A DNA stretch of 64,000 nucleotides from Halomonas sp. ML-15 (GTDB lineage Bacteria > Pseudomonadota > Gammaproteobacteria > Pseudomonadales > Halomonadaceae), in assembly GCF_014779595.1 (NCBI RefSeq), contig NZ_JACXZT010000009.1, positions 3,378 through 67,377 on the forward strand, in the 5' to 3' direction. Below are positions 9,046 through 28,919 of the stretch, piece by piece; position 1 is the first letter of the stretch, and each line of letters starts with the position of its first letter. The notes beneath the pieces were generated by a model that made no database searches, had not been told where the DNA came from, and saw only the letters and a program-made list of their open reading frames with translations. Both the position numbers and the translations under genes were made by a program.

Positions 9046-10929
9046 ATGAAACGTTTTTGCTGTGTTCTGGTGTTCACCTTGGCATTTATCCCGTGGCTGG
9101 TGCTAGGCGAAGAGGGGGGCGATATTCAATGGATCGACGCCGACCTTATGGGGGTGGAAGAGGGCGACTCTACGGCCGCGTACTACTTTGAGCCACCGGT
9201 GGCCGATGGTGAACTCTGGTCGGTCATCCTTTACTACATTGACGAGAGCGACGGCGATGATCCCGTGGTCGCGTATGACGTCCAACTCGATAACCCGGAC
9301 TTTCACGATGCGTTCTTGGTGGGTGAATACAGCCGCTACTACCAGGATGGCAGCCTCCACAGAGTTGGCACGCTGGATGACAAGAGCCGACCACATGGGA
9401 CCTTTACCCATTATCACCGCGATGGCAGCTACGAGGTGTCGGAATATCGGCATGGGCAGCGTCATGGATACCGTCGCGACTACCACGCCAACGATCAACT
9501 GAAACACGAGCAGCACTTCGTTGATGGCGAGCCCGAGGACGGCGAGCGCGTTTACTACGATGAGAATGGTGAAGTGACAACGCGATACTGGCACGTGGAC
9601 GGCAAACTGCATGGTGCGTTGGAACGATTCGTTGGCGGTGTGCTGATGCTAGGGGAGGACTACGTTGATGGACAGCGGCACGGTTGGGCGCGTCGTTTTA
9701 CCGAGGAGGGTGAAAAGGTCAGCGAAGTGGAGTTTGTAGGCGGACAGAGACATGGTGTTGAACGTCGCTGGAGTGATGGCCAGCTTACTCTGGAGAGCCA
9801 CTATCGGCACGGCCAGCAACATGGCCAGCGCCAACGATGGGACGATGGCGTCCTCATCGTGAATAGCTCGTACGTGGAGGGGTCACGTCAGGGTGAAGCG
9901 CAGTTCTTCCGTAATGATGGTACCCGAAGCCGTTACGAATACCGGGATGAGGACGGGCAACTCATTGAGAGACGGGAATATGGCACTGACGACCAGATGA
10001 CCTCGCTGATGATCGTCGAAGAGGGGGAGTACGGCCCTATGACTCGCCAGGAAACCTATCGCGACGGTGCGCTGGTGAGACGCAGGGTGAATAGCGAGGA
10101 CCGTCGTTGGAGTCTGGACGAGCAGTTTCAGCCCCCTGGTGCGGAAGAGCCACGTTACCGACGGGAGACGGTTGACCGTGAGATGCACGGCCGCCAGGTG
10201 AGACCGCTCAACTGGCCAGAAGGTAGTACTGAGATCGGTGAATACGATCATGGTGTCCCGGTGGGGGAACACCGGCATACCGATGAGGATGGCAATCTGA
10301 TCGCCGGTGGGCGGTATGAAAACGGTCACAAAGTGGGTGAGTGGATCACGCTGAGCTACGAGAGCACTGTCCACGAGAACTATGACGATGAGGGGCGTTT
10401 GCACGGCGAGCGTCGGGAAGTCCACGAGGATGGCACGCAGCTGGTGCGGGAGCATTATCGACATGGGGAGCGGCATGGCGATTACATTCAGCGCCATGCG
10501 TGGAACGGGCACATCATAGGCGAAGGTGAGTACCGCGATGGTCAGCGGATCGGCACATGGCGGGTGTTCAACGATTCCCACCAGGCGACATTCGAAGGTG
10601 AGTATGTCGACGGTGAAAAGGACGGACTCTGGGTAGCCCACTTCGAGGATGGCTATGAGCGTGGGAGGGTTCGCTATGACGCCGGATTGCCAGTGGGTGA
10701 TCACTACATTTTCACCCACGATGGCGCCGTGGAGCTAGTCTCCCGTTACGAGGAGGGGCGGCTGCATGGTGAGCAACTGCGTTATTTCGAAGGTACGTTA
10801 AGTGAGGTCCGGCGCTATCGCAATGGAGAGCCCCACGGATTGAACGAGTTCTTCCTGCCTGACGGCGAGCGCTACATGGTGTCGGAATACCGTGACGGCG
10901 TTCTGCTGGAAAGGGAAGACGAGCTGTGA
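9046..10929 (+). CDS. Secreted MORN-variant (YwqK-like) repeat protein (627 aa)
   Basis: Signal peptide. More than 15 tandem ~23-aa repeats of the form Y..DG.L...G.Y..G.RHG. AGGGAGG RBS. Confidence 0.75.
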   Translation: MKRFCCVLVFTLAFIPWLVLGEEGGDIQWIDADLMGVEEGDSTAAYYFEPPVADGELWSVILYYIDESDGDDPVVAYDVQLDNPDFHDAFLVGEYSRYYQDGSLHRVGTLDDKSRPHGTFTHYHRDGSYEVSEYRHGQRHGYRRDYHANDQLKHEQHFVDGEPEDGERVYYDENGEVTTRYWHVDGKLHGALERFVGGVLMLGEDYVDGQRHGWARRFTEEGEKVSEVEFVGGQRHGVERRWSDGQLTLESHYRHGQQHGQRQRWDDGVLIVNSSYVEGSRQGEAQFFRNDGTRSRYEYRDEDGQLIERREYGTDDQMTSLMIVEEGEYGPMTRQETYRDGALVRRRVNSEDRRWSLDEQFQPPGAEEPRYRRETVDREMHGRQVRPLNWPEGSTEIGEYDHGVPVGEHRHTDEDGNLIAGGRYENGHKVGEWITLSYESTVHENYDDEGRLHGERREVHEDGTQLVREHYRHGERHGDYIQRHAWNGHIIGEGEYRDGQRIGTWRVFNDSHQATFEGEYVDGEKDGLWVAHFEDGYERGRVRYDAGLPVGDHYIFTHDGAVELVSRYEEGRLHGEQLRYFEGTLSEVRRYRNGEPHGLNEFFLPDGERYMVSEYRDGVLLEREDEL

Positions 10930-12038
10930 TGAGGTGCCAGTGGAAATCGATGAGGCTGCCGATCTCGGTGATGCTGATGATCCTGACGTTGATCGCGTGT
11001 GACTCAGCCAGGGATGTCGATGTGATTCAGGAGTACCGGGGAAACAGCCATCGTACCGGGCTGTTCGAGGGTAGTGGGCCAAGTGAAAAGCCCAGTCAGC
11101 TATGGCGCTTCCTCACATTGAGTGTGCTGACAGAAACTCCGGTGATCGGCGGTGACACCTTGTTCGTTGGAAGTACCGATCGCTCCGTCTATGCTCTCGA
11201 CGTAGACACTGGAAAGCGGCGTTGGCGTTACAGAACTCTGGGCAATGTTCGCGATGCGGTCGCTGTGGACGAGCAACGCGTTTATGCTGCTGGTGAGGAT
11301 AATACTTTCTACGCCATCGACCGCTATAGCGGCGAGCCACACTGGCAGTTTCCCCTGGACAAGACGCCCCACGGTGCTGCCGCGGTGCGCGAGGGCTTGG
11401 TCTACTTCGGCAGTTTCGATGATCGAGTGATTGCACTGGATACCGACACCGGTGAGCTAGTGTGGGAGTTTCAAGGCAGTCGATCGTTCGCCGCGGGCAT
11501 CACCGTGGTCGAGGACACCCTGTATGCCGCTAGCTTCGACGGACATCTCTACGCGTTTGATGCCGAAACTGGGGAGAAACGCTGGCGGGTTTCCGTGGGT
11601 CGAGGACATTGGCTGACCACCACGCCTGTCTACCGTGAGGGGCAGGTCTTCGTCGGTGGTTGGGCGCAGTACATGACGGCTGTCGGCGCCGAAACAGGAG
11701 AAATCAACTGGACCATCGACACCGAATCTCGGTTGGACCATCCTCCCAGCGTGGCACATGGCTTGGTCTACATCAGTGGAATGAACGCTCTGCAGGCCGT
11801 GGATGAGCAGACTGGGGAACTACGCTGGTCCTTCGATGAGCGCATATTCCGCTCCCCCGCGGTGACCGATAATCGCCTATACGCCGCTTGCGAGAACCAG
11901 GTCTGTACCCTGGATCCTATCAGTGGCGAACTGCTTTGGCGCTCCGATCCGTTGAGCGATACCGTCACTACAATCACCGTGCACGGAGATAGGCTTTTCG
12001 TGACCACCATTGATGGTTATATCTACGCCCTGCAGTGA
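10926..12038 (+). CDS. PQQ-like beta-propeller repeat lipoprotein (BamB-like fold)
   Basis: Lipobox LIAC. Repeats of (V)YAxxxDxxhYAhDxxTGExxWxF. Start overlaps the upstream stop (translational coupling). Confidence 0.75.
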   Translation: MMRCQWKSMRLPISVMLMILTLIACDSARDVDVIQEYRGNSHRTGLFEGSGPSEKPSQLWRFLTLSVLTETPVIGGDTLFVGSTDRSVYALDVDTGKRRWRYRTLGNVRDAVAVDEQRVYAAGEDNTFYAIDRYSGEPHWQFPLDKTPHGAAAVREGLVYFGSFDDRVIALDTDTGELVWEFQGSRSFAAGITVVEDTLYAASFDGHLYAFDAETGEKRWRVSVGRGHWLTTTPVYREGQVFVGGWAQYMTAVGAETGEINWTIDTESRLDHPPSVAHGLVYISGMNALQAVDEQTGELRWSFDERIFRSPAVTDNRLYAACENQVCTLDPISGELLWRSDPLSDTVTTITVHGDRLFVTTIDGYIYALQ

Positions 12039-13495: not shown

Positions 13496-14071
13496 ATGAT
13501 TGATCATGAGTTGTACAGGGGAAAATCTGTGAAATGTACCGCGTGCCAAGAAGGCAATCTGATCCCGAGCTTCCTGGATGACTTGTTTCGTTGTCATACG
13601 TGCGATAGTTGCGGCGGGAACTGGATCTTGATTGAAGACTATATTAGCTGGAAGGAACGGCATCCGGAGCATGTGTTCTCCGGTGAGAGCATCGATGCCG
13701 AGGATTCGCCGGGTGCCTTGATCTGTCCTATGAGCGGCGGGTTGATGCGAAAGTTCCGGATTGCCAAGGACAATGCCCATCGAGTGGATTATAGCGCCAG
13801 GGTCGGTGGAGTATGGCTACACAAGGGTGAATGGGAGATGCTGGTGGCCGAAGGCTTGGCGGGCAACCTTAATGCTATTCTGACGGACCAGTGGCAGCAC
13901 CGTATTCGCCAGGAGAAAGCCAGTGAGTCCCTCGAGAACTTGTATCGCAGTAAGTTCGGGGAAAGTGACTACCAGAGGGCTTGCGAAATCAGGGAGTGGC
14001 TGCATGATCATCCGCAGAAATCTGATATTCGAGCGTTTCTCATGGCCGATTCGCCGTTCTCGGTATCCTAG
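13496..14071 (+). CDS. Tandem TFIIB-type zinc-ribbon domain protein
   Basis: C..C…C..CGG.W and CPMSGG…GGVWL.KGE.E.L patterns characteristic of bacterial zf-TFIIB-like ribbons. Confidence 0.5.
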   Translation: MIDHELYRGKSVKCTACQEGNLIPSFLDDLFRCHTCDSCGGNWILIEDYISWKERHPEHVFSGESIDAEDSPGALICPMSGGLMRKFRIAKDNAHRVDYSARVGGVWLHKGEWEMLVAEGLAGNLNAILTDQWQHRIRQEKASESLENLYRSKFGESDYQRACEIREWLHDHPQKSDIRAFLMADSPFSVS

Positions 14072-14756: not shown

Positions 14757-15461
14757 CTACGAGGCAGATTCGCTACGCGAAGCCTTCAAGCGAGCCATGA
14801 CACCTTCCACAGCGTCGCTTTCCTGATCGATGCCTGCTGCCTTCAGGCGCTCGTCGAGGTCGGCACCGGTCAGCTCCTTCTCCAGCTGCACGCTGGCATG
14901 TTGCTTATCCTCAAGACGTTGCTGGCGCTCGCGGATACGAGCGAGGGTGGTCTTGGCACTGGTCAGAGAGGACTGGTTGCTACCGATGTTGGTGTCGATC
15001 TGAGCGGTAGTGCGGAGTACCCGCTCGTTGGTCTTGACCACTTGGAGTTCGCGCTTGTATTCGGCCAGCTGTTTCTCCGACTTCTGCATGCGTTCACGCA
15101 TGCTGTCCACCTTGCCTTGCAGCTTGGTACGGGTGGCGGTTAGCTCGCTGCGTTGGCGCTCTGCTTCCACGATGCGTTCGGCGACTTCGCGAGCCAGGTC
15201 TTCCTTGCTGGCTGCCAGGGCCTTGCGGGCGTCATCTTCACGGCGGGCGATTTCATCTTCTGTATTCTTGATCTGGCGTGCAAGGGAGGTGTTCTCGGCC
15301 ATCAGGGCTGCAAGCTCCTGACGCGCCTGTTGAAGCTCGTTCTCGGCGTCACGTATTTCCTGTTCGAAGATGCGGTTCGCCTGGTTGTCCACGACCGACT
15401 CGCCCAGTTCGTTAACCCCTCCGCGCATGGCGGTAAGCATTTTCTTGAATACCGATTTCAT
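14757..15461 (-). CDS. PspA/IM30 (ESCRT-III-like) family protein, YjfJ-like
   Basis: N-terminal MKSVFKKMLTAMRGGVNELGE…NQANRIFEQEIRDAENELQQARQ. Coiled-coil throughout. Typical PspA/IM30 length. Confidence 0.85.
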   Translation of the reverse strand: MKSVFKKMLTAMRGGVNELGESVVDNQANRIFEQEIRDAENELQQARQELAALMAENTSLARQIKNTEDEIARREDDARKALAASKEDLAREVAERIVEAERQRSELTATRTKLQGKVDSMRERMQKSEKQLAEYKRELQVVKTNERVLRTTAQIDTNIGSNQSSLTSAKTTLARIRERQQRLEDKQHASVQLEKELTGADLDERLKAAGIDQESDAVEGVMARLKASRSESAS

Positions 15462-15476
15462 ACCGTAGCGCTCCTG

Positions 15477-15881
15477 TTACTTTAAGAAATCTTCAAATAT
15501 TTCAAGTAGATCAATGGCGTTGTCGGCAAGAGTGGTTAGCTCTTGGGCAATTTCTCGATAGGTTGCCGAAGTGGCCAAGGCCCCATGTACGACATAATGT
15601 TGCTCGATTTTGCCAAGAGCGCTGAGTGGCATGGGCACGCTGAGTCTCAGCATGTTGTCGAGAAGTGTCGGGAGACGCTCCGGGATGACTTCACCCTCAT
15701 CAAAAAGGTAAGTGAAGCATAGAATCTGTGCTTCGTCGGCGGTGAGGTAGACAGGCATCTCCTCTGCGCCCGAAACGGTAACCTGCAGCACGTCTTCTTT
15801 ACCTTCTATAGGCATGACGTGGAAGTGTCGACCTTCATGGGTCGTATCGCTGAGGTGTAATGTGAGGTCTTGCGTATCCAC
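15477..15881 (-). CDS. YjfI-like (DUF2170) cytoplasmic protein, partner of the PspA-family gene
   Basis: Size and position immediately upstream of the PspA-like gene mirror the E. coli yjfI-yjfJ arrangement. Sequence recalled as DUF2170-like with moderate certainty. Confidence 0.55.
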   Translation of the reverse strand: MDTQDLTLHLSDTTHEGRHFHVMPIEGKEDVLQVTVSGAEEMPVYLTADEAQILCFTYLFDEGEVIPERLPTLLDNMLRLSVPMPLSALGKIEQHYVVHGALATSATYREIAQELTTLADNAIDLLEIFEDFLK

Positions 15882-16047: not shown

Positions 16048-16683
16048 ATGATGAGGCAAATGTCGATATTTCTATCTATTATCATATCTTTTCCTACCGT
16101 CGTTTTTACTGTTCTGCTCTGTGTTGCCGTTATCTATTGGCTCGTATCCCTATCGGGAATGGTCGATGGTGATGTACTGGATGGTGATGTTGGAGGCGAT
16201 GGGGCAGTAGACTTCGGTGGTTTGCTCGCCACGCTTGGGCTCCAAGGTGTGCCGTTACCCCTGATGGTGACGCTCCTGTCTTTAACGGGCTGGCTGTTGA
16301 GCTACTTCGCTGACCTGTGGCTGGGCGTTAGTACTGCATCTGGCTGGCTAAGTTGGTTGCTGGGCATCGTTCTCCTGCTTGCATCGCTGGTGGGCGCACT
16401 CTTTGCTACGGCCATTCTCATCCGCCCGCTACGGCCCCTGTTCGTGCGGGCATACCACAAGCCGCAAGAAAAGCAGCTCATTGGCACACTCTGCACGATT
16501 CGTTCGGGCTCGGTTGGTCTGGGCAGTGGAAGTGCCGATGTCCACGTCGATGGCTCGCACTTGATTCTACAGGTAAGAAGCGACTCGGCCTTGGCACGCG
16601 GGGACCAAGCCGTACTGATCGAATACTTGTTGGAAGAGCAGGCCTACTGGGTCGTACCTGAAAAAGAATTCCATACCGGCTAG
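16048..16683 (+). CDS. NfeD-like membrane protein (YqiJ family) with C-terminal OB-fold
   Basis: TM helix, acidic DGDVLDGDVGGDG stretch, further TMs, C-terminal beta-rich segment. Gene directly precedes the flotillin gene. Confidence 0.75.
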   Translation: MMRQMSIFLSIIISFPTVVFTVLLCVAVIYWLVSLSGMVDGDVLDGDVGGDGAVDFGGLLATLGLQGVPLPLMVTLLSLTGWLLSYFADLWLGVSTASGWLSWLLGIVLLLASLVGALFATAILIRPLRPLFVRAYHKPQEKQLIGTLCTIRSGSVGLGSGSADVHVDGSHLILQVRSDSALARGDQAVLIEYLLEEQAYWVVPEKEFHTG

Positions 16684-16706: not shown

Positions 16707-18662
16707 ATGGAGACTAAAGCAATGGATTTGTCGTGGATCATGCCACTGATTGTGGCAATTGGTGTTATCACCATTACTGTTTTTGCCTTGCTGGCGTTAT
16801 TTCAGGCTTTTTATCGAAAAATCGATCAGGGCCAGGCGCTGATCGTCAATGATCTCTCAATGACACCGAAGGTGTACTTTACCGGTGCCATGGTGTTGCC
16901 GGTCATTCATCGCTCCGAGATCATGAAGATATCGGTCATTACTCTGGAGATGAATCGCACCGGTAAAGAAGGCTTGATCTGCCGCGACAACCTGCGTGCC
17001 GATATCAGCGTGGCCTTCTATCTCAGGGTCAATGCCACGGCAGACGATGTGCTGCGCGTTGCCAAGTCGGTTGGTGTGGGGCGCGCCTCCGACCGTGATG
17101 CGGTAAATGAGCTGTTCAATGCCAAGTTCAGCGAGGCGTTGAAGACCGTCGGCAAGAAGATGGACTTCATGCAGCTCTTCGATGAGCGCCAGCAGTTCCG
17201 TGATGCCATCGTCGAGACCATCGGTCAGGACTTGAATGGCTACATCCTCGAAGACGTGGCGATCGATTATCTCGAGCAGACGCCCAAGAGCTCTTTGGAC
17301 TCCAATAACATTCTGGATTCAGAGGGCATCAAGCGCATCACCGAAATCACGGCCCAGCACAACGTCGAGACCAATCGCCTGGAGCGTGACCAGGAGCTGG
17401 AAATCCAGCGCAAGAACGTGTCTGCCCGTGAAGCGGGGCTGGAGCTGGAGCGTACCCAGGCCGATGCCGAAGCCCGCCAGCGTCGGGAGATCGATAGCCT
17501 GCAGGCGCGCGAGAGCTCGGAAACCGAGCAGATTCGTCAGCAGGAGCGTGCCAAGAGCGAGGCGGCACGCATCAAGACTGACGAAGAGCTGGCGATTGCC
17601 GATGAGAACAAGCAGCGCCAGATCGAGATGGCGGCCAAGGCGCGTGAGCGTGCCGTGCAGATCGAAGAAGTGCGCATTCAACAGGCGCGCGAACTCGAGG
17701 ATGTGAACCGCGAGCGCGCCGTGGAAATCGAGCGCATCGGCATGGAGAAAGCGCTGGAGGGAGAGCGCAAGGAAATCGCCGACATCACCAGCCAGCGTAT
17801 TGCCGTTGAGCGCAGCGTGGCGGAAGAAGAAGAGAATATCAGCGATGTCCGTAACCGTGCCGAAGCCGAACGCCACAAGGTGACTCGTCTGACGGCTGCC
17901 CAGGCGGAAGCGGAAGAGCGCAAGCTGAAAGAGGTGAAGTCGGCCGAGGCGGCTTTCGAGCGCTCCAAGCTCGAAGCCGAGGAAACGGTGATTCGCTCCC
18001 AGGCCGAGCTGGATGCCGCAGAGAAGAAGGCGGCCGCGGAAGAGAAACAGGCGCGTGGGAACCAGGCACTCGCCGCCGCCGATGGCCTGGCGGAGGCGCA
18101 AGTGCTGGAAGCCCGTGCACATGCGCAGCGCAGCGAAGGCTTGGCGCAGGCCGAGGTCAAGACGGCGAATGCCAAGGCCGAGGAAGATACCGGCATGGCC
18201 GAGGTGCGTGTGCTCGAGCAGCGTCTCGAGGCAGAGGCGATGGGCGAAGAGAAGCTGGGCGCTGCCAAGGCGCAAGCCCGCGAAGCCATGGCGTGCGCCG
18301 AGGCGAACGGCCTCGTCGAGAAGCTCAGGGCCTACGACAACATGTCCGAGGAGGCTCGCCACTTCGAAGAGTTCCGTATGAACCTCGAGGTGCACGAGAA
18401 GGAAGTCATGGCTCAGATCGAAGCGCAGCGCATCGGCATGCTGGAGAACGGCAAGGTGATGGCGGCAGCGCTGCAGAATGCCAAGTTCGAGCTGATCGGT
18501 GGCGATGGCGATATCTTCGAGAAGTTCGCAACGGGGCTCGGTTATGGCAAGACCGTACAAGGGGTTCTCGACAAGTCACCGGCACTCCAGGCGGCCCTGA
18601 TGGGGATCGCAAACCGGGCAGTGGGCAGCCAACCAGCGGCCAAGTCTACCGAAACCGCTTAA
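16707..18662 (+). CDS. Flotillin / SPFH (band 7) family protein, YqiK-like, with long Ala/Glu-rich coiled-coil tail
   Basis: N-terminal TM. GAMVLPVIH motif matching YqiK. SPFH core. ~350 aa EA-rich coiled coil. Confidence 0.9.
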   Translation: METKAMDLSWIMPLIVAIGVITITVFALLALFQAFYRKIDQGQALIVNDLSMTPKVYFTGAMVLPVIHRSEIMKISVITLEMNRTGKEGLICRDNLRADISVAFYLRVNATADDVLRVAKSVGVGRASDRDAVNELFNAKFSEALKTVGKKMDFMQLFDERQQFRDAIVETIGQDLNGYILEDVAIDYLEQTPKSSLDSNNILDSEGIKRITEITAQHNVETNRLERDQELEIQRKNVSAREAGLELERTQADAEARQRREIDSLQARESSETEQIRQQERAKSEAARIKTDEELAIADENKQRQIEMAAKARERAVQIEEVRIQQARELEDVNRERAVEIERIGMEKALEGERKEIADITSQRIAVERSVAEEEENISDVRNRAEAERHKVTRLTAAQAEAEERKLKEVKSAEAAFERSKLEAEETVIRSQAELDAAEKKAAAEEKQARGNQALAAADGLAEAQVLEARAHAQRSEGLAQAEVKTANAKAEEDTGMAEVRVLEQRLEAEAMGEEKLGAAKAQAREAMACAEANGLVEKLRAYDNMSEEARHFEEFRMNLEVHEKEVMAQIEAQRIGMLENGKVMAAALQNAKFELIGGDGDIFEKFATGLGYGKTVQGVLDKSPALQAALMGIANRAVGSQPAAKSTETA

Positions 18663-18788
18663 GGCATGGGCGACACCGCGTAGGTGCGTGTCGCCGGGGC
18701 CAGCCTTGCCTGTGTCCCGACCTTTCGCTTCAGGGCCGCCATGTATTGCACATGCTGCGGCCCTTGCCATTGCCAGCCTACTTCCAGG

Positions 18789-21700
18789 ATGAAGACTATG
18801 TCGAAGGGACCAACTCAGGTCGAGAGCATCGTCAGGGAAAGCACTGCATTCGAGACCATTCAGCGGCGCTTGCGATCCCAGGGTGAAAACCTGCACGCCT
18901 CAGTCGATAAGCTGAACGAGGAGCGTGCCGGGGTTTTCGGTAGCAGCAGCATGGCCCTGCTGGGGCGTGCCCGGGTACGTACCGAGAACAATACCGTGGC
19001 ACGCGATATGGTGCGCATCGGTGACAGGATTCTGTTCGGTTTCAATGTGCAGCTGGGTCTGCGCAAGGCGCTCGAAGTCGGCGATATCTTCTCGCTTTAC
19101 TATCTGGAGGATACCGCCGATGGCTTCGAACTTCAGGAGGCTCCGCTAGAGGGTAGCTTCCTGACGGATGAGCGCTTCGTACAAGACTTCCGGGAGCTGC
19201 AGCAGTACTACAGCAATGCCGTGCTGGTGCAGCTGGCTGTGATGAACGGGATGCTGCTGGCGGCTTTCCAGATTGGCGAGAAACTGACCGACGTACGCGT
19301 GTTTCGCTGGGAGCTGTCGGCGGACGGCAGCGTCAGACGTTACATCGACAACCGGGGCGAGCGCGACCTTGTCCTGCCGGAGCGCTTTGCGTTTCCCTGG
19401 AAAGAGGCGGGTCGTGACCATCAGGAGCAGGGGCGCGCGCCGCACCTGAACATTCTCGACACGGTCTTCATCGACAACCTGCGCGGCAACATTACCTTCA
19501 AGATCGAGAACAACACCGGCAGCGGCGAAGGCATCTATGCCGACCCGGTGGAGTCGGACTCCCAGTCGCTGGACGATGCAGCCTTCGAATATGCCGACCT
19601 GGGCGCGATACTGCTGGTCAGGATCCTGCCCTTCAACGAAAGCCAGTGGCGCTATTATCTGTACAACCGCTCCGAGCAGGTGGTGCAGCGGATAGACGAG
19701 ATGGCCGGCTCGGTCGTCGCGCTGCCCGAAAACCACGGGATCATCTTTCCGTCGGGCTACTACCTCAACAGCGGTGAGCTCAGGACCTACGAGGTGCCCG
19801 ATGAGGACCTGCGCTTCAAGCGCATGGTGCGCTCGCCGAACGGCGAAGACGTTCTCTACATCTTCTATGCGCCCCACACGGGCCATGTGGTGCTCTATCG
19901 CTACAACCTGATCCGCAAGCAGACCGACACGCCGATGGTCGGTCATGGCTTCGCGTTGCTGGAGAATGGCCATCTGGCGATTTTCCACTCCGAGGACGAG
20001 CCGACCCTGGTGCACCCGATCCAGGTGTGGGACACGCCGTTCATGTCGGAGAACTTCCATGCCCAGGATGCCGTTCGCAACGACACCCCGCTGGGTCGAA
20101 TCGGTAACCCCGAGCTGGTGCGCGGGATTGCCGAGCTGAACAGCATCGTTCAACTGGCGGGGGAGCAGCAGGCTTCCGAGCGACATTACAATGCCATCAT
20201 CCGGCGGGTGGACCGCGCGCTCAATCAGTTCCACTGGCTGGGCGAGGCCACCTTCGAGGCGGTGCACGATCTGCTGGTGCAGCTCAAGCATACCGCTGAA
20301 CTGATGCTCGACGAGTATGAGAAGGTCCAGGCGATCCGGGGGCAGACGGCAGAGGCCCTGGATAGCATCGGTGGGCAGCAGGACACGCTGCTACGGGAAC
20401 TCAAGCCGAGCAGCTGGAAAACGCCGGATCAATTCGTATCGCATCTCAAGGCGCTGCGCGATCACCGCGGCCGCCTGCTGGCGCTGCGGGATCGTCGCTA
20501 TCTCGATGAGGAGCGTCTGCAGGAGCTGGAGCAGGCGTTGGACAAGGCCGAACGGACCCTGACCGGCCAGACCTTCGACTTTCTTGCGACGCCCGAAGCG
20601 CTGGACGGCTATCGGGCGACCCTGGCTGCATTGGCAGAGCGCGTGAAGGAGGCCGAAACGCGGGATCAACTGGGCAAATGCGTCGGCGAGTATCGCGAGC
20701 TGACCGCCGGCCTGGACATGATACAGGCCATGCTGTCGTCCATGTCCGGCGACGATGCCACCCAGCAGACCCGTATTACCGAGAACATCTCGAGCATTTA
20801 CGCCACCATCAACCAGCAGCGCTCCGAGGCGGAGATCCGCATGCGCGAGCAGGGCAGTGCCGAAGCACAGGCCCAGTTCGCCGCTCAGATCCGGCTGTTC
20901 GAGCAGAGCCTGGCCAATGGCGTGGGGGCCCTGCGTGAGCCCGACGACTGCGACCAGTTGATGACACGGATGCTGGATCAACTGCAGGAGCTGGAGGGGC
21001 AGTTCGGCGAGTTCGACGAATTCCTGAGCATGATCCTGGAGCAGCGCGAGAGTGCCCACGAGAGTATCGAGGCGCGCCGCCAGCAGCTGCAGGACGAGCG
21101 CCAGCGCCGCGTCAACACCCTCACCGATGCCACCAAGCGCATTCTGCAGAACGTGGAGCGGCGCACCGAGCGCTTCGAGACCCTCGAGGAGCTGCACAGC
21201 TTTTTTGCCTCGGATGCGATGGTGGCCAAGGTGCGCAGCATGGCAGACGAGCTGCGTGAGATGGGCGCCAACCTCGAAGCCGATGACCTGGCCGGGCGCT
21301 TGCGCTCGACCCAGGACGCCGCCCTGCGCAGTGTCCGTGATCGGGCCGATATCTATGAATCCGGTGGCAATGTCATCCGCCTGGGGCCGCGCCATCGTTT
21401 CAGTGTCAATCAGCAGCATCTGGACCTGACGCTGGTGCCGCGGGATGACAGTATCATGCTGCATCTCACCGGTACGCAGTTCTATGCGCCGCTGAAGGAT
21501 GAGCGCCTGGAGGCGCTACGCCCCTACTGGTCGATCACCCTGCCATCCGAGACCGACGAGGTCTATCGGGCCGAGTACCTGGCTTACCTGATCATGGAGG
21601 CGCTGGCGCGTCCCGGAGCCGAGCGGATCAACGTGGAGGACCAGGCGGAACTGGAGCGCTACATCAGCCGCTTTGCCTCGCCGCGCTACCGCGAAGGCTA

Positions 21701-23735
21701 CGAAAAGGGCATTCATGACCACGATGCCGCCCGAATCGTGCGGACTCTTTGGCCGGCACGCCAGAGCGCCGGACTGCTCGGCTATGGCCCCTTGCCGCGG
21801 GCCATCGCGATGCTCTACTGGGCGCAATGCCGCCAGGACGAAAGCGCGTCCCGCAACCTGCGCGCGCGCTGCCTGTCGGCCGGCATGCTGTGCCGCATCA
21901 TGGGCAATGAAGACCTGCTGCTGGCGCTGATCGAAGAGGTCGCTCCACTGCTGGATGCCTTCGTCAGCCAGTGTCGGCTTGATGGGTCGGCAAGCCAGCG
22001 CAGGAGTGCCGCGGAATACCTCGTGCGTCAGCTTGCCGAGGAGGGTGAGAGCTTCCCCGTTACCCAATACGCCGCCGAGCTGGTCGACAGCTTTACTGCC
22101 GCGATGAAGCAGCAGGGGCATTACCGCCATTTCGAGGAGTCGTTGGCAGTGGTGGCAGGCCAGCCTGGGCCACGCTGGACGATCACGTCGCACTGGCTGC
22201 AGGCTCACGCGGAAAACGCGGGCAAGGAGGCGCTGCTGCACTACCTCCCCGAAGCGATCGCCCTGTTGAATACGGCGGATCGTCTGGCCACGGCAACTCA
22301 CAACGTCGAGCTCTCGTTTCGTGTCGAAGGGTTGCTCGGCCAGCACCCGAGGCTGTCGCAGCAGTCCCTGGCACTGCAGCTGGACGACTTCCACGAGCGC
22401 CTGCGCCATCACCAGCAGGAAGTGATACGCGGCTGGTCGGAACTTCAGGAGCGTCGCCAGACCATTCTACGCGAGCAGCGTGAGCGGCTTCGTCTCGAGG
22501 AGTTCATGCCCAAGCCGTTGAACTCCTTCGTGCGCAACAAGCTGATCACCGAAAGCTATCTGCCGATCATCGGCGACAACCTGGCCAAGCAGATGGGCAC
22601 CGTTGGCGATGCGCGTCGAACCGACAACAGCGGCCTGCTGATGATGATCTCGCCGCCGGGCTACGGCAAGACCACCCTGATGGAGTACGTCGCCAATCGC
22701 CTGGGGTTGATCTTCATGAAGATCAACTGCCCGAGCCTCGGCCACGATGTCACCTCGCTGGACCCGGAAATGGCCGCCCACTCCACCGCAAGGGCCGAGC
22801 TGGTAAAGCTCAACCTCGCTCTGGAGATGGGCAACAACGTGATGCTGTATCTGGACGATATCCAGCACACCCACCCGGAGTTCCTGCAGAAGTTCATCTC
22901 CCTGTGTGACGGCAGCCGGCGCATCGACGGTGTATGGGAGGGGCGAAACAAGACCTACGACATGCGTGGCAAGCGGTTCTGCATTGCCATGGCGGGCAAC
23001 CCCTATACCGAGAGCGGGGAGGCCTTCAAGGTGCCGGACATGCTGGCCAACCGGGCCGACGTGTATAACCTCGGCGATGTGCTGAGCGGGATGGAAGGCG
23101 TTTTTGCCCTCTCCTATATCGAGAATGCCATCAGCGCCAATACCGTGCTGGCGCCGTTGGCCACCCGTGGGTTGGACGACTTCTACCGCTTCGCCGATCT
23201 GGCGGCGGGCCGTGAGGTACCGAGCACCGACTTCGAGCACGACTACAGCGCAGCCGAGCGGGAGGAGATCGTGGCGGTGTTGAAGCACATGTTCAAGGTG
23301 CGTGAGGTGGTGTTGAGCGTCAATCAGCAGTACATCGCCTCGAGTGCCCAGGCAGATGCCTACCGGACCGAGCCGAGCTTCCGCCTGCAGGGCAGTTACC
23401 GCAATATGAGCCGCCTCGCCGAGAAGATATCGCCGATCCTGTCCGACGAAGAGCTCGAAGCGATTCTCGATGACCACTACCTCGGTGAAGCTCAGCTACT
23501 GACCCAGGGGGCGGAAGAGAACCTGCTCAAGCTCAAGGAGCTTCGCGGCACCTTGAGCGCCGAGGAGGCGCAGCGCTGGGAGTCCATCAAGCGTGAGTTC
23601 CGTCGCCGTCAACTGACCGGTGGCGACGAGGAAACCGGTGCCCTGGTGGTGCGTCAGCTTAGTCTCATCGCCGAAGGCGTGGGTAACCTCGGCGCCTCGA
23701 TGCCGACCGGGGAGAGTTACCGCGAGCCGAGTTGA
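18789..23735 (+). CDS. Giant (~1645 aa) protein. N-terminal ~500 aa is an unknown beta-rich region, the middle ~700 aa is alpha-helical/coiled-coil, and the C-terminus is a MoxR/McrB-clade AAA+ ATPase
   Basis: Walker A ISPPGYGKTT. Walker B VMLYLDDIQ. Sensor-1-like CIAMAGNPYTE…DMLANRAD, the hhhhA(T/A)xNP pattern of helix-2-insert AAA+. Start at 18789 or 18798 (AGGA RBS). Confidence 0.8.
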   Translation: MKTMSKGPTQVESIVRESTAFETIQRRLRSQGENLHASVDKLNEERAGVFGSSSMALLGRARVRTENNTVARDMVRIGDRILFGFNVQLGLRKALEVGDIFSLYYLEDTADGFELQEAPLEGSFLTDERFVQDFRELQQYYSNAVLVQLAVMNGMLLAAFQIGEKLTDVRVFRWELSADGSVRRYIDNRGERDLVLPERFAFPWKEAGRDHQEQGRAPHLNILDTVFIDNLRGNITFKIENNTGSGEGIYADPVESDSQSLDDAAFEYADLGAILLVRILPFNESQWRYYLYNRSEQVVQRIDEMAGSVVALPENHGIIFPSGYYLNSGELRTYEVPDEDLRFKRMVRSPNGEDVLYIFYAPHTGHVVLYRYNLIRKQTDTPMVGHGFALLENGHLAIFHSEDEPTLVHPIQVWDTPFMSENFHAQDAVRNDTPLGRIGNPELVRGIAELNSIVQLAGEQQASERHYNAIIRRVDRALNQFHWLGEATFEAVHDLLVQLKHTAELMLDEYEKVQAIRGQTAEALDSIGGQQDTLLRELKPSSWKTPDQFVSHLKALRDHRGRLLALRDRRYLDEERLQELEQALDKAERTLTGQTFDFLATPEALDGYRATLAALAERVKEAETRDQLGKCVGEYRELTAGLDMIQAMLSSMSGDDATQQTRITENISSIYATINQQRSEAEIRMREQGSAEAQAQFAAQIRLFEQSLANGVGALREPDDCDQLMTRMLDQLQELEGQFGEFDEFLSMILEQRESAHESIEARRQQLQDERQRRVNTLTDATKRILQNVERRTERFETLEELHSFFASDAMVAKVRSMADELREMGANLEADDLAGRLRSTQDAALRSVRDRADIYESGGNVIRLGPRHRFSVNQQHLDLTLVPRDDSIMLHLTGTQFYAPLKDERLEALRPYWSITLPSETDEVYRAEYLAYLIMEALARPGAERINVEDQAELERYISRFASPRYREGYEKGIHDHDAARIVRTLWPARQSAGLLGYGPLPRAIAMLYWAQCRQDESASRNLRARCLSAGMLCRIMGNEDLLLALIEEVAPLLDAFVSQCRLDGSASQRRSAAEYLVRQLAEEGESFPVTQYAAELVDSFTAAMKQQGHYRHFEESLAVVAGQPGPRWTITSHWLQAHAENAGKEALLHYLPEAIALLNTADRLATATHNVELSFRVEGLLGQHPRLSQQSLALQLDDFHERLRHHQQEVIRGWSELQERRQTILREQRERLRLEEFMPKPLNSFVRNKLITESYLPIIGDNLAKQMGTVGDARRTDNSGLLMMISPPGYGKTTLMEYVANRLGLIFMKINCPSLGHDVTSLDPEMAAHSTARAELVKLNLALEMGNNVMLYLDDIQHTHPEFLQKFISLCDGSRRIDGVWEGRNKTYDMRGKRFCIAMAGNPYTESGEAFKVPDMLANRADVYNLGDVLSGMEGVFALSYIENAISANTVLAPLATRGLDDFYRFADLAAGREVPSTDFEHDYSAAEREEIVAVLKHMFKVREVVLSVNQQYIASSAQADAYRTEPSFRLQGSYRNMSRLAEKISPILSDEELEAILDDHYLGEAQLLTQGAEENLLKLKELRGTLSAEEAQRWESIKREFRRRQLTGGDEETGALVVRQLSLIAEGVGNLGASMPTGESYREPS

Positions 23736-23839: not shown

Positions 23840-24580
23840 GTGATGATGTTTGGAAAACTTGTTTTTGGGCCGTTCTTTTTGCTGTTTTCATCAAGCAAGA
23901 GTTTGTTTAAGAGTGTGTCGGTTCCGGCTGTCATCTACTTTCTTGTGAATATGGAAATGCAAGGTGTTCTAGATTTTTTCTGGGCGTCTGGGTGGCTGAT
24001 CGGAGGAGTTGCATATATTGTCTTGGAGTGCGTTCTTCTATTGCTGATGACGTTGCTTGGTGTCAATGCAACGCGTGTGGTTCTGCTAGGTGGGAGCTTG
24101 TCAGCGGTTGGCGTGAGATGGACTAAGAGGGAAAGTGCCTATTTTCTCTATACTCTTTTGTTCATGCTTCCTTTGTATCTTATGACACTGCCTGAGATCT
24201 TTTTGAACAAGGCTCCTCTTGAGGTGAGGTTTGCCTATAGCCTGTTGTATCTAGTTTTGATGATAGGGTGGGTTTGGGTTTTTTCCAGGCTGTTGTTGGT
24301 CTTTCCAAGTATTGCGGTCGATGGCCGCATGAGTCTCAAAGACTCATGGCGGCTAACGAGAAAGTATCAGTGGGTGTTTTTGCTCTCGATTCTGTGTGTA
24401 GGTGGAATGTTTGTTGTTATGGGGGGTATGTTGCAGCTTATTCCCTTTGGCCATATTGCTGTTCATGCATTTCATACTCTGTTGGCGTTGGTCGTCTCAT
24501 TGATGCTGGCGGCTTATTATGCCGAGGTCGTGGTAAAGGAAATTCGGCCGGAGCATGATCGTTTCGCGACGGAGGAGTAG
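23840..24580 (+). CDS. Multi-TM membrane protein, unknown (low-GC islet)
   Basis: 6+ hydrophobic helices. AT-rich codon usage. Confidence 0.55.
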   Translation: MMMFGKLVFGPFFLLFSSSKSLFKSVSVPAVIYFLVNMEMQGVLDFFWASGWLIGGVAYIVLECVLLLLMTLLGVNATRVVLLGGSLSAVGVRWTKRESAYFLYTLLFMLPLYLMTLPEIFLNKAPLEVRFAYSLLYLVLMIGWVWVFSRLLLVFPSIAVDGRMSLKDSWRLTRKYQWVFLLSILCVGGMFVVMGGMLQLIPFGHIAVHAFHTLLALVVSLMLAAYYAEVVVKEIRPEHDRFATEE

Positions 24581-24683
24581 ATGCCTGATAGCTCGTGATT
24601 TAACCTTCTCTGAGCTAAGAATCATAGTGCCTATGAGGTCATTGGATTTTTTGGTGAAATAAATTCAAGCAATTCCGGGGTGT

Positions 24684-25925
24684 TTGTTGGATATCAGAGT
24701 AATAGTCTTGCTTGTCTTGTTTTTTAATTTATTCTTGTTGTCTTCCGTGCTGAAGCGCTTTTTTGATGCGAGAAGAGTCAGGGAAAGCATGCTAGATGGC
24801 AGTTCATGCCGGCCGTTGACTGAAAAAGAAAAGACAATTGCGACTCTAGGGCTGACCTTTGCTGACCACAGTTATCAGGGGGGCGGTGCATATAGAATCA
24901 CAGGGCCTTTGAGTGAATATAAGATTAGGCATAGAGGGATCGTTACTGAGGTCAGGTATAAGGCTGGCGGTGTGGAAATTATTCCTGCATTTGATGCGTT
25001 AGATTTTATTAAGGAAAATAGCGTAATTGATTTGGTCGATGTGGGTAAGGGAAAGATGGGGGTGATCAAAGTCGATGATGTGTTTGATTTAGAGGAGGCC
25101 GTGGAAAGGAAAGAGCTTCAGTTTCCAGTGAGATTTCTAGAAGGCACGCTAGGGGTGTTGTATGGATCGTCAGGCGATAGAAAGGCAGAAAGTATAGAAG
25201 TTATCAGTGTGGCCGATTGTGAAGATAAGGGCGTTTATGACGACCGAGTCGATTCCGAAAAATTTTACTTCTCGTCACTTCATTTACTAGCAGTGTTTGG
25301 ATTTCTGCTGCTGACTGTCCTGGGGTTACAAATAAGCATTTTGTCTCTTTTGTTCTTGATTCCGGTTCCTTTCTTTCTGTTTTTTTCCTTTTCTTTTTTC
25401 AGCATGGGTTTTTGTAAGGGTGAAGGAGAAGGTTATAGGATATTTAAAGTTAAGGCTGTTATGCATCGTGGTGGCTTAGGGTATGTCGTTGATTTAGGTC
25501 CCTTGGAAATGGTTACGGTCCCTCTTCCTTGGCGCGAATTTTTAGTAAGTGATGCTCACCCAAAGGAGTACGAAATAGTAGTCTCGCCATATGGTGGGGC
25601 TAGCTTACATAGTGCGCAAGGTCTATCAGTCGAGACAATGCCTGAGCCAAGCAAAAATTGGATCCCCTTTGCGGGTCCGGCTTGTGTCTCAGCATTAGCG
25701 CTGATCGCTGGGTTTTTTATGCTTAACCCATCCGACTTTTTTGTTATGCTTTCTGCTGGTGAGCTTTTTCAGCCGCGAAGCATGGCTGTTGCTTTTTTCT
25801 TCTTTATCGCGGGGGTGGTTTTTTTAATTAGTGCGCCTCTCTATTTTTATCGTTATTACAGATATCGTGCTGAGTTTGACGAGTGTGTTGCTACGGTACG
25901 CTCTGCTAAGGAAAAAAGCGGGTAA
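24684..25925 (+). CDS. Membrane protein with large soluble domain between TM1 and later TMs, unknown
   Basis: N-terminal TM, ~200 aa hydrophilic domain, then 4-5 TMs. Confidence 0.55.
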   Translation: MLDIRVIVLLVLFFNLFLLSSVLKRFFDARRVRESMLDGSSCRPLTEKEKTIATLGLTFADHSYQGGGAYRITGPLSEYKIRHRGIVTEVRYKAGGVEIIPAFDALDFIKENSVIDLVDVGKGKMGVIKVDDVFDLEEAVERKELQFPVRFLEGTLGVLYGSSGDRKAESIEVISVADCEDKGVYDDRVDSEKFYFSSLHLLAVFGFLLLTVLGLQISILSLLFLIPVPFFLFFSFSFFSMGFCKGEGEGYRIFKVKAVMHRGGLGYVVDLGPLEMVTVPLPWREFLVSDAHPKEYEIVVSPYGGASLHSAQGLSVETMPEPSKNWIPFAGPACVSALALIAGFFMLNPSDFFVMLSAGELFQPRSMAVAFFFFIAGVVFLISAPLYFYRYYRYRAEFDECVATVRSAKEKSG

Positions 25926-26610: not shown

Positions 26611-27732
26611 TTACTCAGCAGGCTGACATATACTCTGCAAAATTTCCCAATCCTGTTGGGATAGCGATGGCTTGGTGGTTGGCAAAGCAGAATGATTACG
26701 GACGAGCTCAGCCCGGACAGTGCTCTCTGGGTGTGTATGAAGGTATGAAGGGAGCCAGTACTCTTCATCGTCCTGCTTCGCAAGCCGATCAAAGAAATTG
26801 GCAAAGGGTTCGCTGCTGATGCGGGCCGTATTGAGAAGTTCCAGAGCAAACTCATCGGCTTGAAGCTCTGCTGTATGTGTATAATTGGCACGCAGTAGAG
26901 CTTCTCCCAGTAAGGTAATGGTAGCGCCTCCGGTTATATCGCCTAGAATCATTGCCAAAATTCCAGCTGAACCTGCTGAGCGCAGGGCTAATCTGGTAGG
27001 ATCTCGTGCTTCGACATGTCCTATTTCATGGGCAATCACGCCAGCAATCTCGTCAGGCGATTCAGCAGATTCAATGAGCCCGCGCAGTAACACAATATGC
27101 CCCCTTGGGGCAGCAAAGGCATTGACCATGGGGTGGTCAATAACTTGTACATGAATATCGTATTCTGTTGGATGACTTTCCACCAGTCTAATTACCAGCC
27201 TATCGAGTACGGCCGTCTCTTTCACGCCACTACAGGCTTTGGCCCCTCCTAGCATGTTTTTCATCTGGGAAACAACAGCGCGACCGACAGCAGCTTCGCT
27301 GTCTCGAGGAATATAAGTAGCTAGGCGGTCTGCGAGTGCCGGTATAATGACAAAGAGTAGAGCGAGCACTGATACTGTGGCAGCACCCGCCAGAGTCACG
27401 AGTTGACGCTTTATGCCAGGCCTGCTTTCTCGTGCATCCAGTTTGGGTGCGGCTTTCTGCAACCAGAGAATGAGCGCTGCATCGGTTATGATCAGTCTGG
27501 CTGGGTCATGTGGCGTTTCATCCTCGCTCTGTGTGTATTGCGTCAGCATGAGCCCCTCGCCTTGGTAAGATCGCTTGCGTAGGGCGTCTAGCGGCCAGCT
27601 AATATACTGGCCAGCCTCAGTTTCAATATGCAAGGCATCCCGCCCGGCTGATAGCCGGACGAGATGCTTTCTGGATGTTTCACCGTCGAAGAAAAGCCCT
27701 TGGGTGCTCGCTTCGGAGGAAGCATGCTTCAC
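26611..27732 (-). CDS. M48-family zinc metallopeptidase with N-terminal domain and TM anchor
   Basis: HEIGH zinc-binding motif within AHEIGHVEARD. Downstream E. TM helix ~res 110-135. 4-nt overlap with the upstream DUF898 gene. Confidence 0.85.
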   Translation of the reverse strand: MKHASSEASTQGLFFDGETSRKHLVRLSAGRDALHIETEAGQYISWPLDALRKRSYQGEGLMLTQYTQSEDETPHDPARLIITDAALILWLQKAAPKLDARESRPGIKRQLVTLAGAATVSVLALLFVIIPALADRLATYIPRDSEAAVGRAVVSQMKNMLGGAKACSGVKETAVLDRLVIRLVESHPTEYDIHVQVIDHPMVNAFAAPRGHIVLLRGLIESAESPDEIAGVIAHEIGHVEARDPTRLALRSAGSAGILAMILGDITGGATITLLGEALLRANYTHTAELQADEFALELLNTARISSEPFANFFDRLAKQDDEEYWLPSYLHTHPESTVRAELVRNHSALPTTKPSLSQQDWEILQSICQPAE

Positions 27733-28919
27733 ACTGTTGCTCCAACGTCCAGAACATCAGCAAAGCCTTCTGCATCCGTGCCCAGATCGGGGGCTCGTTG
27801 ATTGATCGATTCCAATGAGTCGAGGTGCAGCACAGTCGTGTGCTGTACAATATGAGAAATGACAGGTTGTACCACCATGACAAGCATCAAAGCGCCAATT
27901 AATATAAACGCCGAGATGTAGGCTAGGGGGGGTAGCATTATACTAAGCATTCCTAATGTGGCAGTGCTAATGTCAGATTGCCATATCAAGGCACCTATAG
28001 GTCCTGCCAGTAGCAAAATGCAGAGTAAGGTGATAATGCTGGCACCAAGTGACCCAAGTATTACCATTGTGATGATAGATGAGGGGGTCAGGTTGTTGGA
28101 GAAATGAACCTCGTCGCCAAGAACTTTGGTATTTGTCAGGTATTGAAAAGATTTTACTTTGTAATACATTACGCCGAGTGACCACCAGATGGTCGCGATG
28201 ACGAAGACAATTGTACCCAAGGTAGGCTTTGATAGGGCCATGGCAAGGCCTGATAGTAATGCTAGGCCGAGGCCGATGAAAATGTGTCGCATGGCAGAGT
28301 AGAGTTGGGTCCAGGAGCCACTTTGATGGAATTTTACCTGCCCGTACCAAGTCCTATCCGTCTGGTATTTCTCCAACCAATACGTCTGGCGAGGTAACAG
28401 TAGTCCGAGGCTGATCAAGGTTAGCAGACCATGCCCGATCACTCGGACACTATATCCCCAAGCCCCCGGCTCCATGCCGAATCGTATGCCGCGGAACCGA
28501 GTGCGGGCCATTTTATAACGTCGTGCACGATATTGTGCGAAGAAGATGAGAGGGGCAAGAAATACGAGGTTGAGATAGAAAGAGGCTGTCATGATAATAA
28601 AGTCAACCTCACTGCTTACTCTACGAAACATGCTAAGGTTGAAGAAGAAAAGTAGTAGCTGCACTATGGACAGATAGACTGCCACCACAATAAGAGCGAT
28701 GAAAAAACCTTTTAGCTTTTCCAGCCCTGTACCCGTGTACTCAAACCGGTCGCCGTTAACACTAATGGATGACAAAAGAAAACGTCTTATTCTTGTTTTT
28801 GCCCAAAAGCGATATATTCCTATTGTAAGAACTGTCAACAGGCTTGTGACTAGTGAGATTTTAAGAAGCTTGCCCGTTTGGCCGTCATAACCAGCGGTGA
28901 TTTTTTCCGTAGAGCTCAT
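27729..28919 (-). CDS. DUF898 (YjgN-like) polytopic inner-membrane protein
   Basis: N-terminal LLTVLTIGIYRFWAKTRIRRF and internal repeat RFRGIRFGM…LLTLISLGLLLP, typical of the duplicated DUF898 architecture. Confidence 0.8.
   Translation of the reverse strand: MSSTEKITAGYDGQTGKLLKISLVTSLLTVLTIGIYRFWAKTRIRRFLLSSISVNGDRFEYTGTGLEKLKGFFIALIVVAVYLSIVQLLLFFFNLSMFRRVSSEVDFIIMTASFYLNLVFLAPLIFFAQYRARRYKMARTRFRGIRFGMEPGAWGYSVRVIGHGLLTLISLGLLLPRQTYWLEKYQTDRTWYGQVKFHQSGSWTQLYSAMRHIFIGLGLALLSGLAMALSKPTLGTIVFVIATIWWSLGVMYYKVKSFQYLTNTKVLGDEVHFSNNLTPSSIITMVILGSLGASIITLLCILLLAGPIGALIWQSDISTATLGMLSIMLPPLAYISAFILIGALMLVMVVQPVISHIVQHTTVLHLDSLESINQRAPDLGTDAEGFADVLDVGATV

Follow-up and report, generated by a model that had tools for sequence, protein, structure and literature searches.

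Conserved three-gene locus of a giant AAA+ protein

The analysed window, a 64,000-nucleotide (nt) stretch of contig NZ_JACXZT010000009.1 of Halomonas sp. ML-15, contains a gene encoding a giant protein with a C-terminal AAA+ module, hereinafter designated the giant. Its open frame is unbroken from 18684 to 23735 on the plus strand. ATG 18798 is the likelier start codon, because the sequence AGGA sits 9 nt 5' of it. The public database protein, which also starts at ATG 18798 and has 1645 amino acids (aa), is 100% identical to the giant. Residues are numbered here in the 1648-aa frame counted from ATG 18789, the start taken in the initial annotation. The giant gene forms a triad with two genes on the same strand:

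16048–16683, plus strand: gene for a YqiJ/NfeD-like multi-pass membrane protein whose soluble β domain is C-terminal, 211 aa (207 aa from the caller-assigned start 16060); opens the triad
16707–18662, plus strand: YqiK-type flotillin (SPFH) gene, 651 aa (646 aa from the caller-assigned start 16722); immediately 5' of the giant gene
18798–23735, plus strand: giant AAA+ gene, 1645 aa from ATG 18798 (1648 aa from ATG 18789)

The giant belongs to the Pfam DUF3686–DUF7902–AAA family (PF12458, E 5.7e-174; PF25472, E 3.7e-19), whose homologues share 43–100% identity across 98% of the length or more. Homologues number more than 2,100 in one search and more than 6,300 in another, and a scan with one genome per species yielded at least 567 giant loci. 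Genomic context was compared in 80 of these loci, whose giants are 43–72% identical over essentially the whole length. The sample spans Gamma-, Beta- and Zetaproteobacteria, Myxococcota, Actinomycetota and one Clostridia metagenome-assembled genome (MAG). Full-length identity between proteobacterial and actinobacterial giants is 43–50%. Judged by the number of homologues and the identity across phyla, the open reading frame (ORF) is evidently not a chance one. The giant is a typical member of a large, catalogued and uncharacterised family, which has been given a name and a short description; a full-text literature search found no experimental or structural work on it.

The triad is conserved in composition and order. 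A flotillin homologue is present in 76 of the 80 loci and a YqiJ-like homologue in 72, both invariably immediately 5' of the giant gene and in the same orientation, and the loci without one or the other are all on contigs that end short of that position. All-against-all clustering of the ORFs of the loci gives the same linkage, and reveals no universally conserved downstream gene. The median gaps are 38 bp between the YqiJ-like gene and the flotillin gene and 136 bp between the flotillin gene and the giant gene, compared with 23 bp and 126–135 bp in the window. Pairwise distances in 71 loci, taken without species-tree control, correlate with r = 0.91 for giant and flotillin and r = 0.83 for giant and YqiJ-like protein, which argues for co-inheritance of the three proteins as a unit. 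Annotated records place the triad also in Bacteroidota, in Deinococcota and on the Pseudomonas fluorescens megaplasmid pQBR103, so that it occurs in at least six phyla. In its genomic context, the giant gene invariably comes third in the triad, after the yqiJ-like and flotillin genes, and is an obligate genomic partner of this pair.

The flotillin–giant junction takes insertions. Two PD-(D/E)XK transposase genes occupy it in a Zetaproteobacteria MAG (L023, 8012–9912), and an NYN-domain gene lies inside it in Lampropedia (L024, 7626–9164).

The identity of the two upstream genes came from comparison with E. coli YqiK and YqiJ; Pfam, NCBIfam and PADLOC give no match for the 651-aa or the 211-aa protein. 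Specifically, the flotillin matches E. coli YqiK in BLASTP (8e-39, 27% identity over 508 aa including the SPFH domain) and in hhalign (99.9%). It has no match to Pfam Band_7, and a PDB profile search of the flotillin family gives none either, so that domain-based SPFH surveys could miss the family. The profile of the YqiJ-like family matches E. coli YqiJ (DUF1449) in hhalign (84.8%, E 6.5e-6), while BLASTP with the window protein gives no match to YqiJ; the Hymenobacter counterpart is annotated as DUF1449. E. coli yqiJ–yqiK and B. subtilis yuaF–floT are homologous to the first two genes of the triad and have the same order, but the flotillin gene is the last of these operons (sibD/ibsD come next in E. 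coli), whereas the triad always adds the giant ATPase gene. A special C-terminal docking extension on the linked flotillin was considered and dropped: the consensus …IDIVGGDG… resembles an ordinary flotillin C-terminus. BLASTP gives no match between the C-terminal tail and the tail of YqiK.

The operon has been covered previously in one comparative-genomics paragraph, which read it as a membrane-dynamics system and listed a CesT/Tir–PspA pair, a YqiJ/YuaF-type membrane protein and sometimes a PLD gene among its members, versions without PspA being shorter and more widespread (Ravi et al. 2024, PMC11237479). The window holds the same system with all five components. Specifically, the genes for the YqiJ/YuaF-like protein, the flotillin (transmembrane, SPFH and coiled-coil segments) and the giant AAA+ protein follow one another in one direction, and the CesT/Tir (YjfI)–PspA pair is adjacent on the opposite strand at 14757–15881; the CesT/Tir assignment of YjfI is taken from PMC11237479. 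The window differs from the published operon in that the PspA–YjfI pair is divergently transcribed and the PLD gene is absent. The published account offers neither a structure nor a clade assignment, and it includes no experiment. In a 2026 survey of SPFH proteins in P. aeruginosa, no ATPase is mentioned, and even multiple SPFH deletions in that species gave no pronounced phenotypes (PMC13086221).

Three further genes of the window have homologues that recur beside the triad:

13496–14071, plus strand: TFIIB-type zinc-ribbon protein, 191 aa (Pfam PF13453, E 5e-9); a recurrent accessory gene
14757–15461, minus strand: PspA/IM30 (YjfJ-type) gene (Pfam PF04012, E 7.4e-40); divergent to the triad
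15477–15881, minus strand: YjfI/DUF2170 (CesT/Tir-like chaperone) gene (Pfam PF09938, E 1.4e-30); paired with pspA

Homologues of pspA adjoin the triad in 38–41 of the 80 loci, mostly upstream and on the same strand, and YjfI homologues do so in 28–42. Zinc-ribbon homologues separate the flotillin gene from the giant gene in five loci of Burkholderiales (L049, L053, L061, L064 and L065) and 3' of the giant gene in L011 and L069. A PLD-family gene is found 3' of the giant gene in 14 loci (e.g. Pseudomonas L007, 15146–15835), and a TelA (toxic anion resistance) gene in 14 others (e.g. Luteimonas L027, 16032–17135). On pQBR103 of P. fluorescens SBW25 (L087, 87112–106365), the triad directly follows a DUF2491–DUF350–DUF1190–glutathionylspermidine-synthase cluster, an arrangement that joins the two PspA-associated operon types of Ravi et al. 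Some 9 kb 3' of this triad there is a PLD-family gene. The recurrent accessory genes (PspA, YjfI, PLD, TelA and zinc-ribbon) all point to membrane stress. The context of YqiJ/NfeD-like protein, YqiK-type flotillin and, often, PspA and YjfI had been missed in the initial annotation of the giant, and was the decisive clue in the present analysis.

Architecture of the giant protein

The domains of the giant were located by a Pfam profile scan, with matches judged against the curated cut-offs, and by two AlphaFold2 models computed from an 88-sequence alignment of Proteobacteria and Actinobacteria. The models cover residues 1–530 and 851–1648, with predicted local distance difference test (pLDDT) scores of 91.5 and 89.4, respectively. 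The features, all on the plus strand, are as follows:

18954–20033, plus strand: all-β propeller-like domain of about seven four-stranded blades, residues 56–415, inside DUF3686
20049–21368, plus strand: helical region, residues 421–860, including DUF7902; residues 421–529 form a bundle with helix 10–50
21369–22508, plus strand: pre-AAA region, residues 861–1240, with a five-stranded β domain, a packed helical domain and a long helix
22539–23078, plus strand: AAA+ α/β core, residues 1251–1430
22650–22676, plus strand: Walker A SPPGYGKTT, residues 1288–1296
22842–22859, plus strand: Walker B MLYLDD, residues 1352–1357
22920–22961, plus strand: pre-sensor-1 β-hairpin RIDGVWEGRNKTYD, residues 1378–1391
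22986–23060, plus strand: AMAGNP…ANRAD, residues 1400–1424, with sensor 1 N1404 and arginine-finger candidate R1422
23079–23696, plus strand: lid and C-terminal helical region, residues 1431–1636, with a long extra helix at 1488–1520
23385–23408, plus strand: LQGSYRNM, candidate sensor 2 by its pattern; invariant in the alignment

The N-terminal part is a β-rich head held by helices. In the model, helix 10–50 packs onto helices 421–529 in a four-helix-bundle-like unit, and the intervening residues 56–415 are all-β, with about 28 strands in about seven groups of four. Structure comparison of this model returns weak propeller matches and helical-bundle matches. By this arrangement, the head is a propeller-like domain of divergent type set into a helical bundle, in agreement with the "β-propeller repeats" noted by Ravi et al. 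(PMC11237479). The Pfam profile DUF3686 covers residues 35–482 (E 6e-174), and DUF7902 covers residues 603–687 (nt 20595–20849). Residues 531–860 are helix-rich by composition (about 54% A/E/L/R/Q, 1.2% proline), with weak heptad periodicity in a Fourier test. In the model of residues 851–1648, five strands make a small β domain at 861–905, followed by a tightly packed helical domain to about residue 1190 with pLDDT above 95; a long helix (1198–1234) then runs into the AAA+ core. The AAA+ module is thus predicted to be preceded by about 1,240 residues of ordered, non-enzymatic scaffold, and domain-library scans of the giant find no nuclease or DNA-binding domain.

These results change the picture given by the initial annotation, which had called for structural parsing by AlphaFold and Foldseek and for profile searches of the N-terminal and middle residues. 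The former resolves the propeller-like head in its bundle, the packed helical domain and the AAA+ module, and the Pfam scan gives DUF3686 and DUF7902 at the positions above. The first 500 or so residues are indeed β-rich (56–415), but the statement that they hold no placeable motif fails with the DUF3686 match. Similarly, the 1,300 or so N-terminal residues described as uncharacterised are already catalogued under the two Pfam families and partly foldable, while the family itself is uncharacterised. Of the helical, coiled-coil and low-complexity middle, the helices are borne out (421–529 and 927–1240), but the approximately 310 residues at 927–1240 form a well-packed domain, with pLDDT above 95, and are not of low complexity.

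The AAA+ module proper occupies residues 1250–1640, and a pattern scan of the giant finds no second P-loop. It carries every motif that had been read from the sequence initially: a lone C-terminal P-loop, a lone Walker B and the AMAGNP…ANRAD sensor region. The P-loop GYGKTT, put near residue 1320, lies within SPPGYGKTT at 1288–1296 (about 1326 if counted from the mechanical GTG), and the Walker B given as LYLDDIQ corresponds to the one MLYLDD. Walker A and Walker B each occur once and conform to the AAA+ patterns GxxxxGK[ST] and hhhhD[DE], with DD in Walker B where DE is usual. The core has the AAA+ strand order 5-1-4-3-2 and a helical lid, with sensor 1 after β4 and the arginine finger before β5. 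Residues K1294, D1356, D1357, N1404 and R1422 are invariant across the 88 aligned sequences. By these patterns, the ATPase module is intact and under strong constraint. The 33-residue helix 1488–1520 comes before the invariant LQGSYRNM, which fits G-[ST]-x-R, the sensor-2 pattern known in RuvB and MoxR, and is a candidate sensor 2.

The assignment to the helix-2-insert class, also made initially, is not supported. In the AlphaFold2 model there is no helix-2 β-hairpin between β2 (1308–1313) and α2 (1332–1347); the stretch is instead an ordered, strandless 18-residue segment, of which 4 residues are helical and 14 form a loop (pLDDT above 90). No aromatic residue occurs in this β2–α2 loop, nor at the pore-loop-1 position. 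The model does show a pre-sensor-1 hairpin, with strands 1378–1383 and 1386–1391 between helix 1363–1373 and strand 1397–1402.

Sequence comparison sets the module apart from named AAA+ families. Pfam AAA_5 matches residues 1284–1407 with 25.6 bits (cut-off 22, E 1.4e-5), and the overlapping Pfam AAA scores alike, also above its cut-off. The motif NP-x-E-x-G…(A/M)L-x-N-R resembles the sensor-1 and arginine-finger signature of MoxR/AAA_5 proteins. PDB searches with the single sequence and with the profile match the giant in the Walker A region only; the matches of the profile are to NVL, Rix7 and RuvB. A phmmer search with residues 1230–1648 returned 898 cluster representatives among 1.84 billion proteins, and the top 150 matches are all proteins of 1600–1900 aa with the module at about 1200–1650, or fragments thereof. 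We conclude that the AAA+ module is a distinct, sequence-isolated lineage within the pre-sensor-1-hairpin superclade. Within it, the module is structurally nearest the AAA_5 (MoxR/dynein/midasin) group, although this placement is unsettled. Membership of MoxR, RuvB or McrB proper was rejected, and the module is placed as a separate lineage. The MoxR/McrB/dynein type proposed initially survives in the AAA_5 match and the MoxR/dynein affinity, but the module is not placed in MoxR or McrB, and Foldseek and hhalign prefer RuvB and Clp-D2.

The differences from each neighbouring group are considerable. MoxR proteins (CbbQ, NorQ and RavA; AAA_5/AAA_3) have 250–500 aa, whereas the giant adds about 1,240 N-terminal residues, consistent with the earlier statement that its architecture is unlike RavA/MoxR or McrB. 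MoxR proteins work with a VWA/MIDAS partner, whereas the giant operon has no VWA gene; none was found among the conserved neighbours of the 80 loci or the scanned ORFs of the window. Also unlike MoxR, the giant has no helix-2 hairpin in the model, has DD in Walker B and scores 3.8% to RavA in hhalign. Dynein and midasin (Rea1/Mdn1) have six AAA+ modules per chain and the giant has one, so that any ring needs several chains. The giant has no stalk, microtubule-binding domain or MIDAS domain, and no similarity of its helical region to the dynein linker was detected. RuvB and the D2 modules of ClpA, ClpB and ClpC (HCLR group) share with the giant a pre-sensor-1 hairpin without a helix-2 hairpin. 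The module mixes features that usually divide AAA+ clades, which matters for AAA+ classification.

Proposed function and alternatives

The giant is most likely a flotillin-coupled membrane-stress remodeller and not a DNA repair protein. More specifically, we propose, with confidence and doubt in equal measure, that it is a cytoplasmic AAA+ mechano-enzyme that works with the YqiK-type flotillin and the YqiJ/NfeD-like partner at the inner membrane, the whole being an envelope- or membrane-stress module that often includes PspA and YjfI. By analogy with other AAA+ proteins, the giant would form rings, presumably hexameric. Arms made of the helical regions would extend from the ring, and the propeller–bundle heads would serve as binding modules, docking on the flotillin/NfeD assembly from its cytoplasmic side or on clients that it holds. 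Movement of the ring against the arms, driven by nucleotide, would then pull on these assemblies, whether to build, open, dismantle or move them when the membrane is under stress; in lineages with a PspA gene next to the triad, PspA would be recruited as well. Three features suggest an action closer to the gripping and pulling of midasin, dynein and MoxR than to polypeptide threading: the pore loop has no aromatic residue, Walker B is DD, and the fold resembles that of MoxR, dynein and midasin.

HflK/C–FtsH and prohibitin–m-AAA protease each pair an SPFH-family membrane assembly functionally with an AAA+ ATPase. SPFH cages paired with AAA+ machines, as in HflK/C–FtsH, are the nearest functional precedent for the giant; in architecture the closest analogy is dynein or midasin. 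The precedent differs in both partners: FtsH is a membrane-anchored classic-clade AAA+ protease, whereas the giant belongs to another clade and has no detected protease domain, and the SPFH partner of the giant is of the flotillin/YqiK type, unlike HflK/C. Regulation in the HflKC–FtsH system is cited in the survey of P. aeruginosa SPFH proteins (PMC13086221).

In a bolder form, which we put forward tentatively and regard as somewhat less probable than not, the giant would be the first dedicated ATP-driven remodeller of bacterial flotillin assemblies: an "arm" ATPase of dynein- or midasin-like kind with one module, its ring pulling on flotillin/NfeD cages to open or dismantle them under membrane stress. 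If so, flotillin microdomains would be actively cycled and not passive scaffolds. Independently of this form, a large and strongly conserved ATPase that is tied to one class of flotillin operon in at least six phyla gives an enzymatic handle on bacterial flotillin function and on the assembly and disassembly of flotillins.

Several observations weigh against a flotillin-coupled mechano-enzyme. The clade placement is mixed: Foldseek puts RuvB (1.2e-5) and Clp-D2 first for the AAA+ model, and hhalign gives 94% to E. coli RuvB, from Walker A to Walker B, compared with 3.8% to E. coli RavA. With DD in Walker B, hydrolysis could be slow or the role of the module switch-like. The tie of the giant to flotillin, YqiJ-like protein and PspA is genomic only, and the distance correlation behind co-inheritance is uncorrected for the species tree. 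Furthermore, many flotillin operons, including E. coli yqiJK, have no giant gene, which argues that the giant is dispensable for basic flotillin function.

Two alternatives keep the giant at the membrane and change its target. The ATPase may act on client membrane proteins gathered by flotillin, extracting, holding or assembling them under stress as a non-proteolytic counterpart of FtsH in the HflK/C cage. We consider this unlikely: the operon conserves no protease or client-type gene, and the module has no aromatic pore loop for threading. The data do not separate client from flotillin as the target. Alternatively, flotillin could be a membrane landmark only, and the giant a Vps4-like remodeller of polymers of PspA, the bacterial ESCRT-III. 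Both in the window and in roughly half of the loci, PspA and the YjfI chaperone do adjoin the triad, and PspA-linked AAA+ proteins have been likened to ESCRT-III/Vps4 (PMC11237479); we nevertheless rate this explanation as improbable, slightly more so than action on clients.

Two other explanations would take the giant away from membrane remodelling. That it is a conflict or anti-phage NTPase, McrB-like or STAND-like, which senses infection at the membrane, is very unlikely. PADLOC finds no defence system in the window, the giant reaching only IetA (E 0.0016) and LmuB (E 0.009), while the matches of PspA to LmuB and JetC are coiled-coil matches. No phage record holds the module and plasmid records are rare; full-length identity across phyla is 43–50% with a fixed gene order; the PD-(D/E)XK genes are transposase insertions, and no effector gene is conserved. 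The least credible explanation, to which we assign hardly any probability, is that the giant is an SMC/SbcC-like DNA repair ATPase, as the database label says. The identical database entry is titled "DNA repair ATPase [Halomonas sp. ML-15]", and beyond such source-given names the only SMC-like signal is the weak, coiled-coil-type LmuB match. Of the 1648 residues, the lone P-loop is at 1291 and Walker B follows 60 residues on, both within the AAA+ fold; a split ABC-type head would instead have Walker A near the N-terminus and the signature motif and Walker B near the C-terminus. Scans of the protein detect neither a nuclease nor a DNA-binding domain, and its neighbours include no SbcD/Mre11-like partner or nuclease, the conserved ones being all membrane-stress genes. 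A DNA repair or SMC-like identity is thus contradicted by architecture and gene context, consistent with the suspicion already voiced in the initial annotation that the label is unfounded. Thousands of database entries carry the name "DNA repair ATPase"; since domains and neighbours give it no support, the annotation should be corrected.

Mobility and surroundings of the locus

The ATPase module occurs in 13 of 72,556 plasmid records, mostly megaplasmids or mislabelled chromosomes, and in 0 phage records. A mobile-element gene was rejected on these grounds. No tRNA gene was found in the window. The 166-bp divergent intergenic region between the YjfI and YqiJ-like genes contains two promoter-like sites; the promoter and terminator scan performs no better than on shuffled sequence.

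The base composition of the window is mosaic. The giant gene has 60–65% G+C, like the right half of the window (30001–64000, about 65%), and is flanked by low-G+C blocks of 48% at 12–14 kb and 43–52% at 24–30 kb. The block at 24–26 kb is strongly skewed, with a GC skew of +0.25 and an AT skew of -0.25. Directly 3' of the giant gene, in this low-G+C skewed block, are two ORFs of 246 and 413 aa (23840–25925, plus strand), which have no match in Pfam, NCBIfam or PADLOC and no homologue in the 80 loci.

Two further gene pairs flank the region. A 627-aa MORN-repeat protein is followed by a 370-aa PQQ/BamB-like β-propeller protein at 9046–12038 on the plus strand, with a 4-base overlap and a GTG start at 10926; this pair is not kept beside the triad in other loci. 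On the minus strand, the genes for an M48 peptidase and a DUF898 membrane protein form an overlapping pair at 26611–28919.

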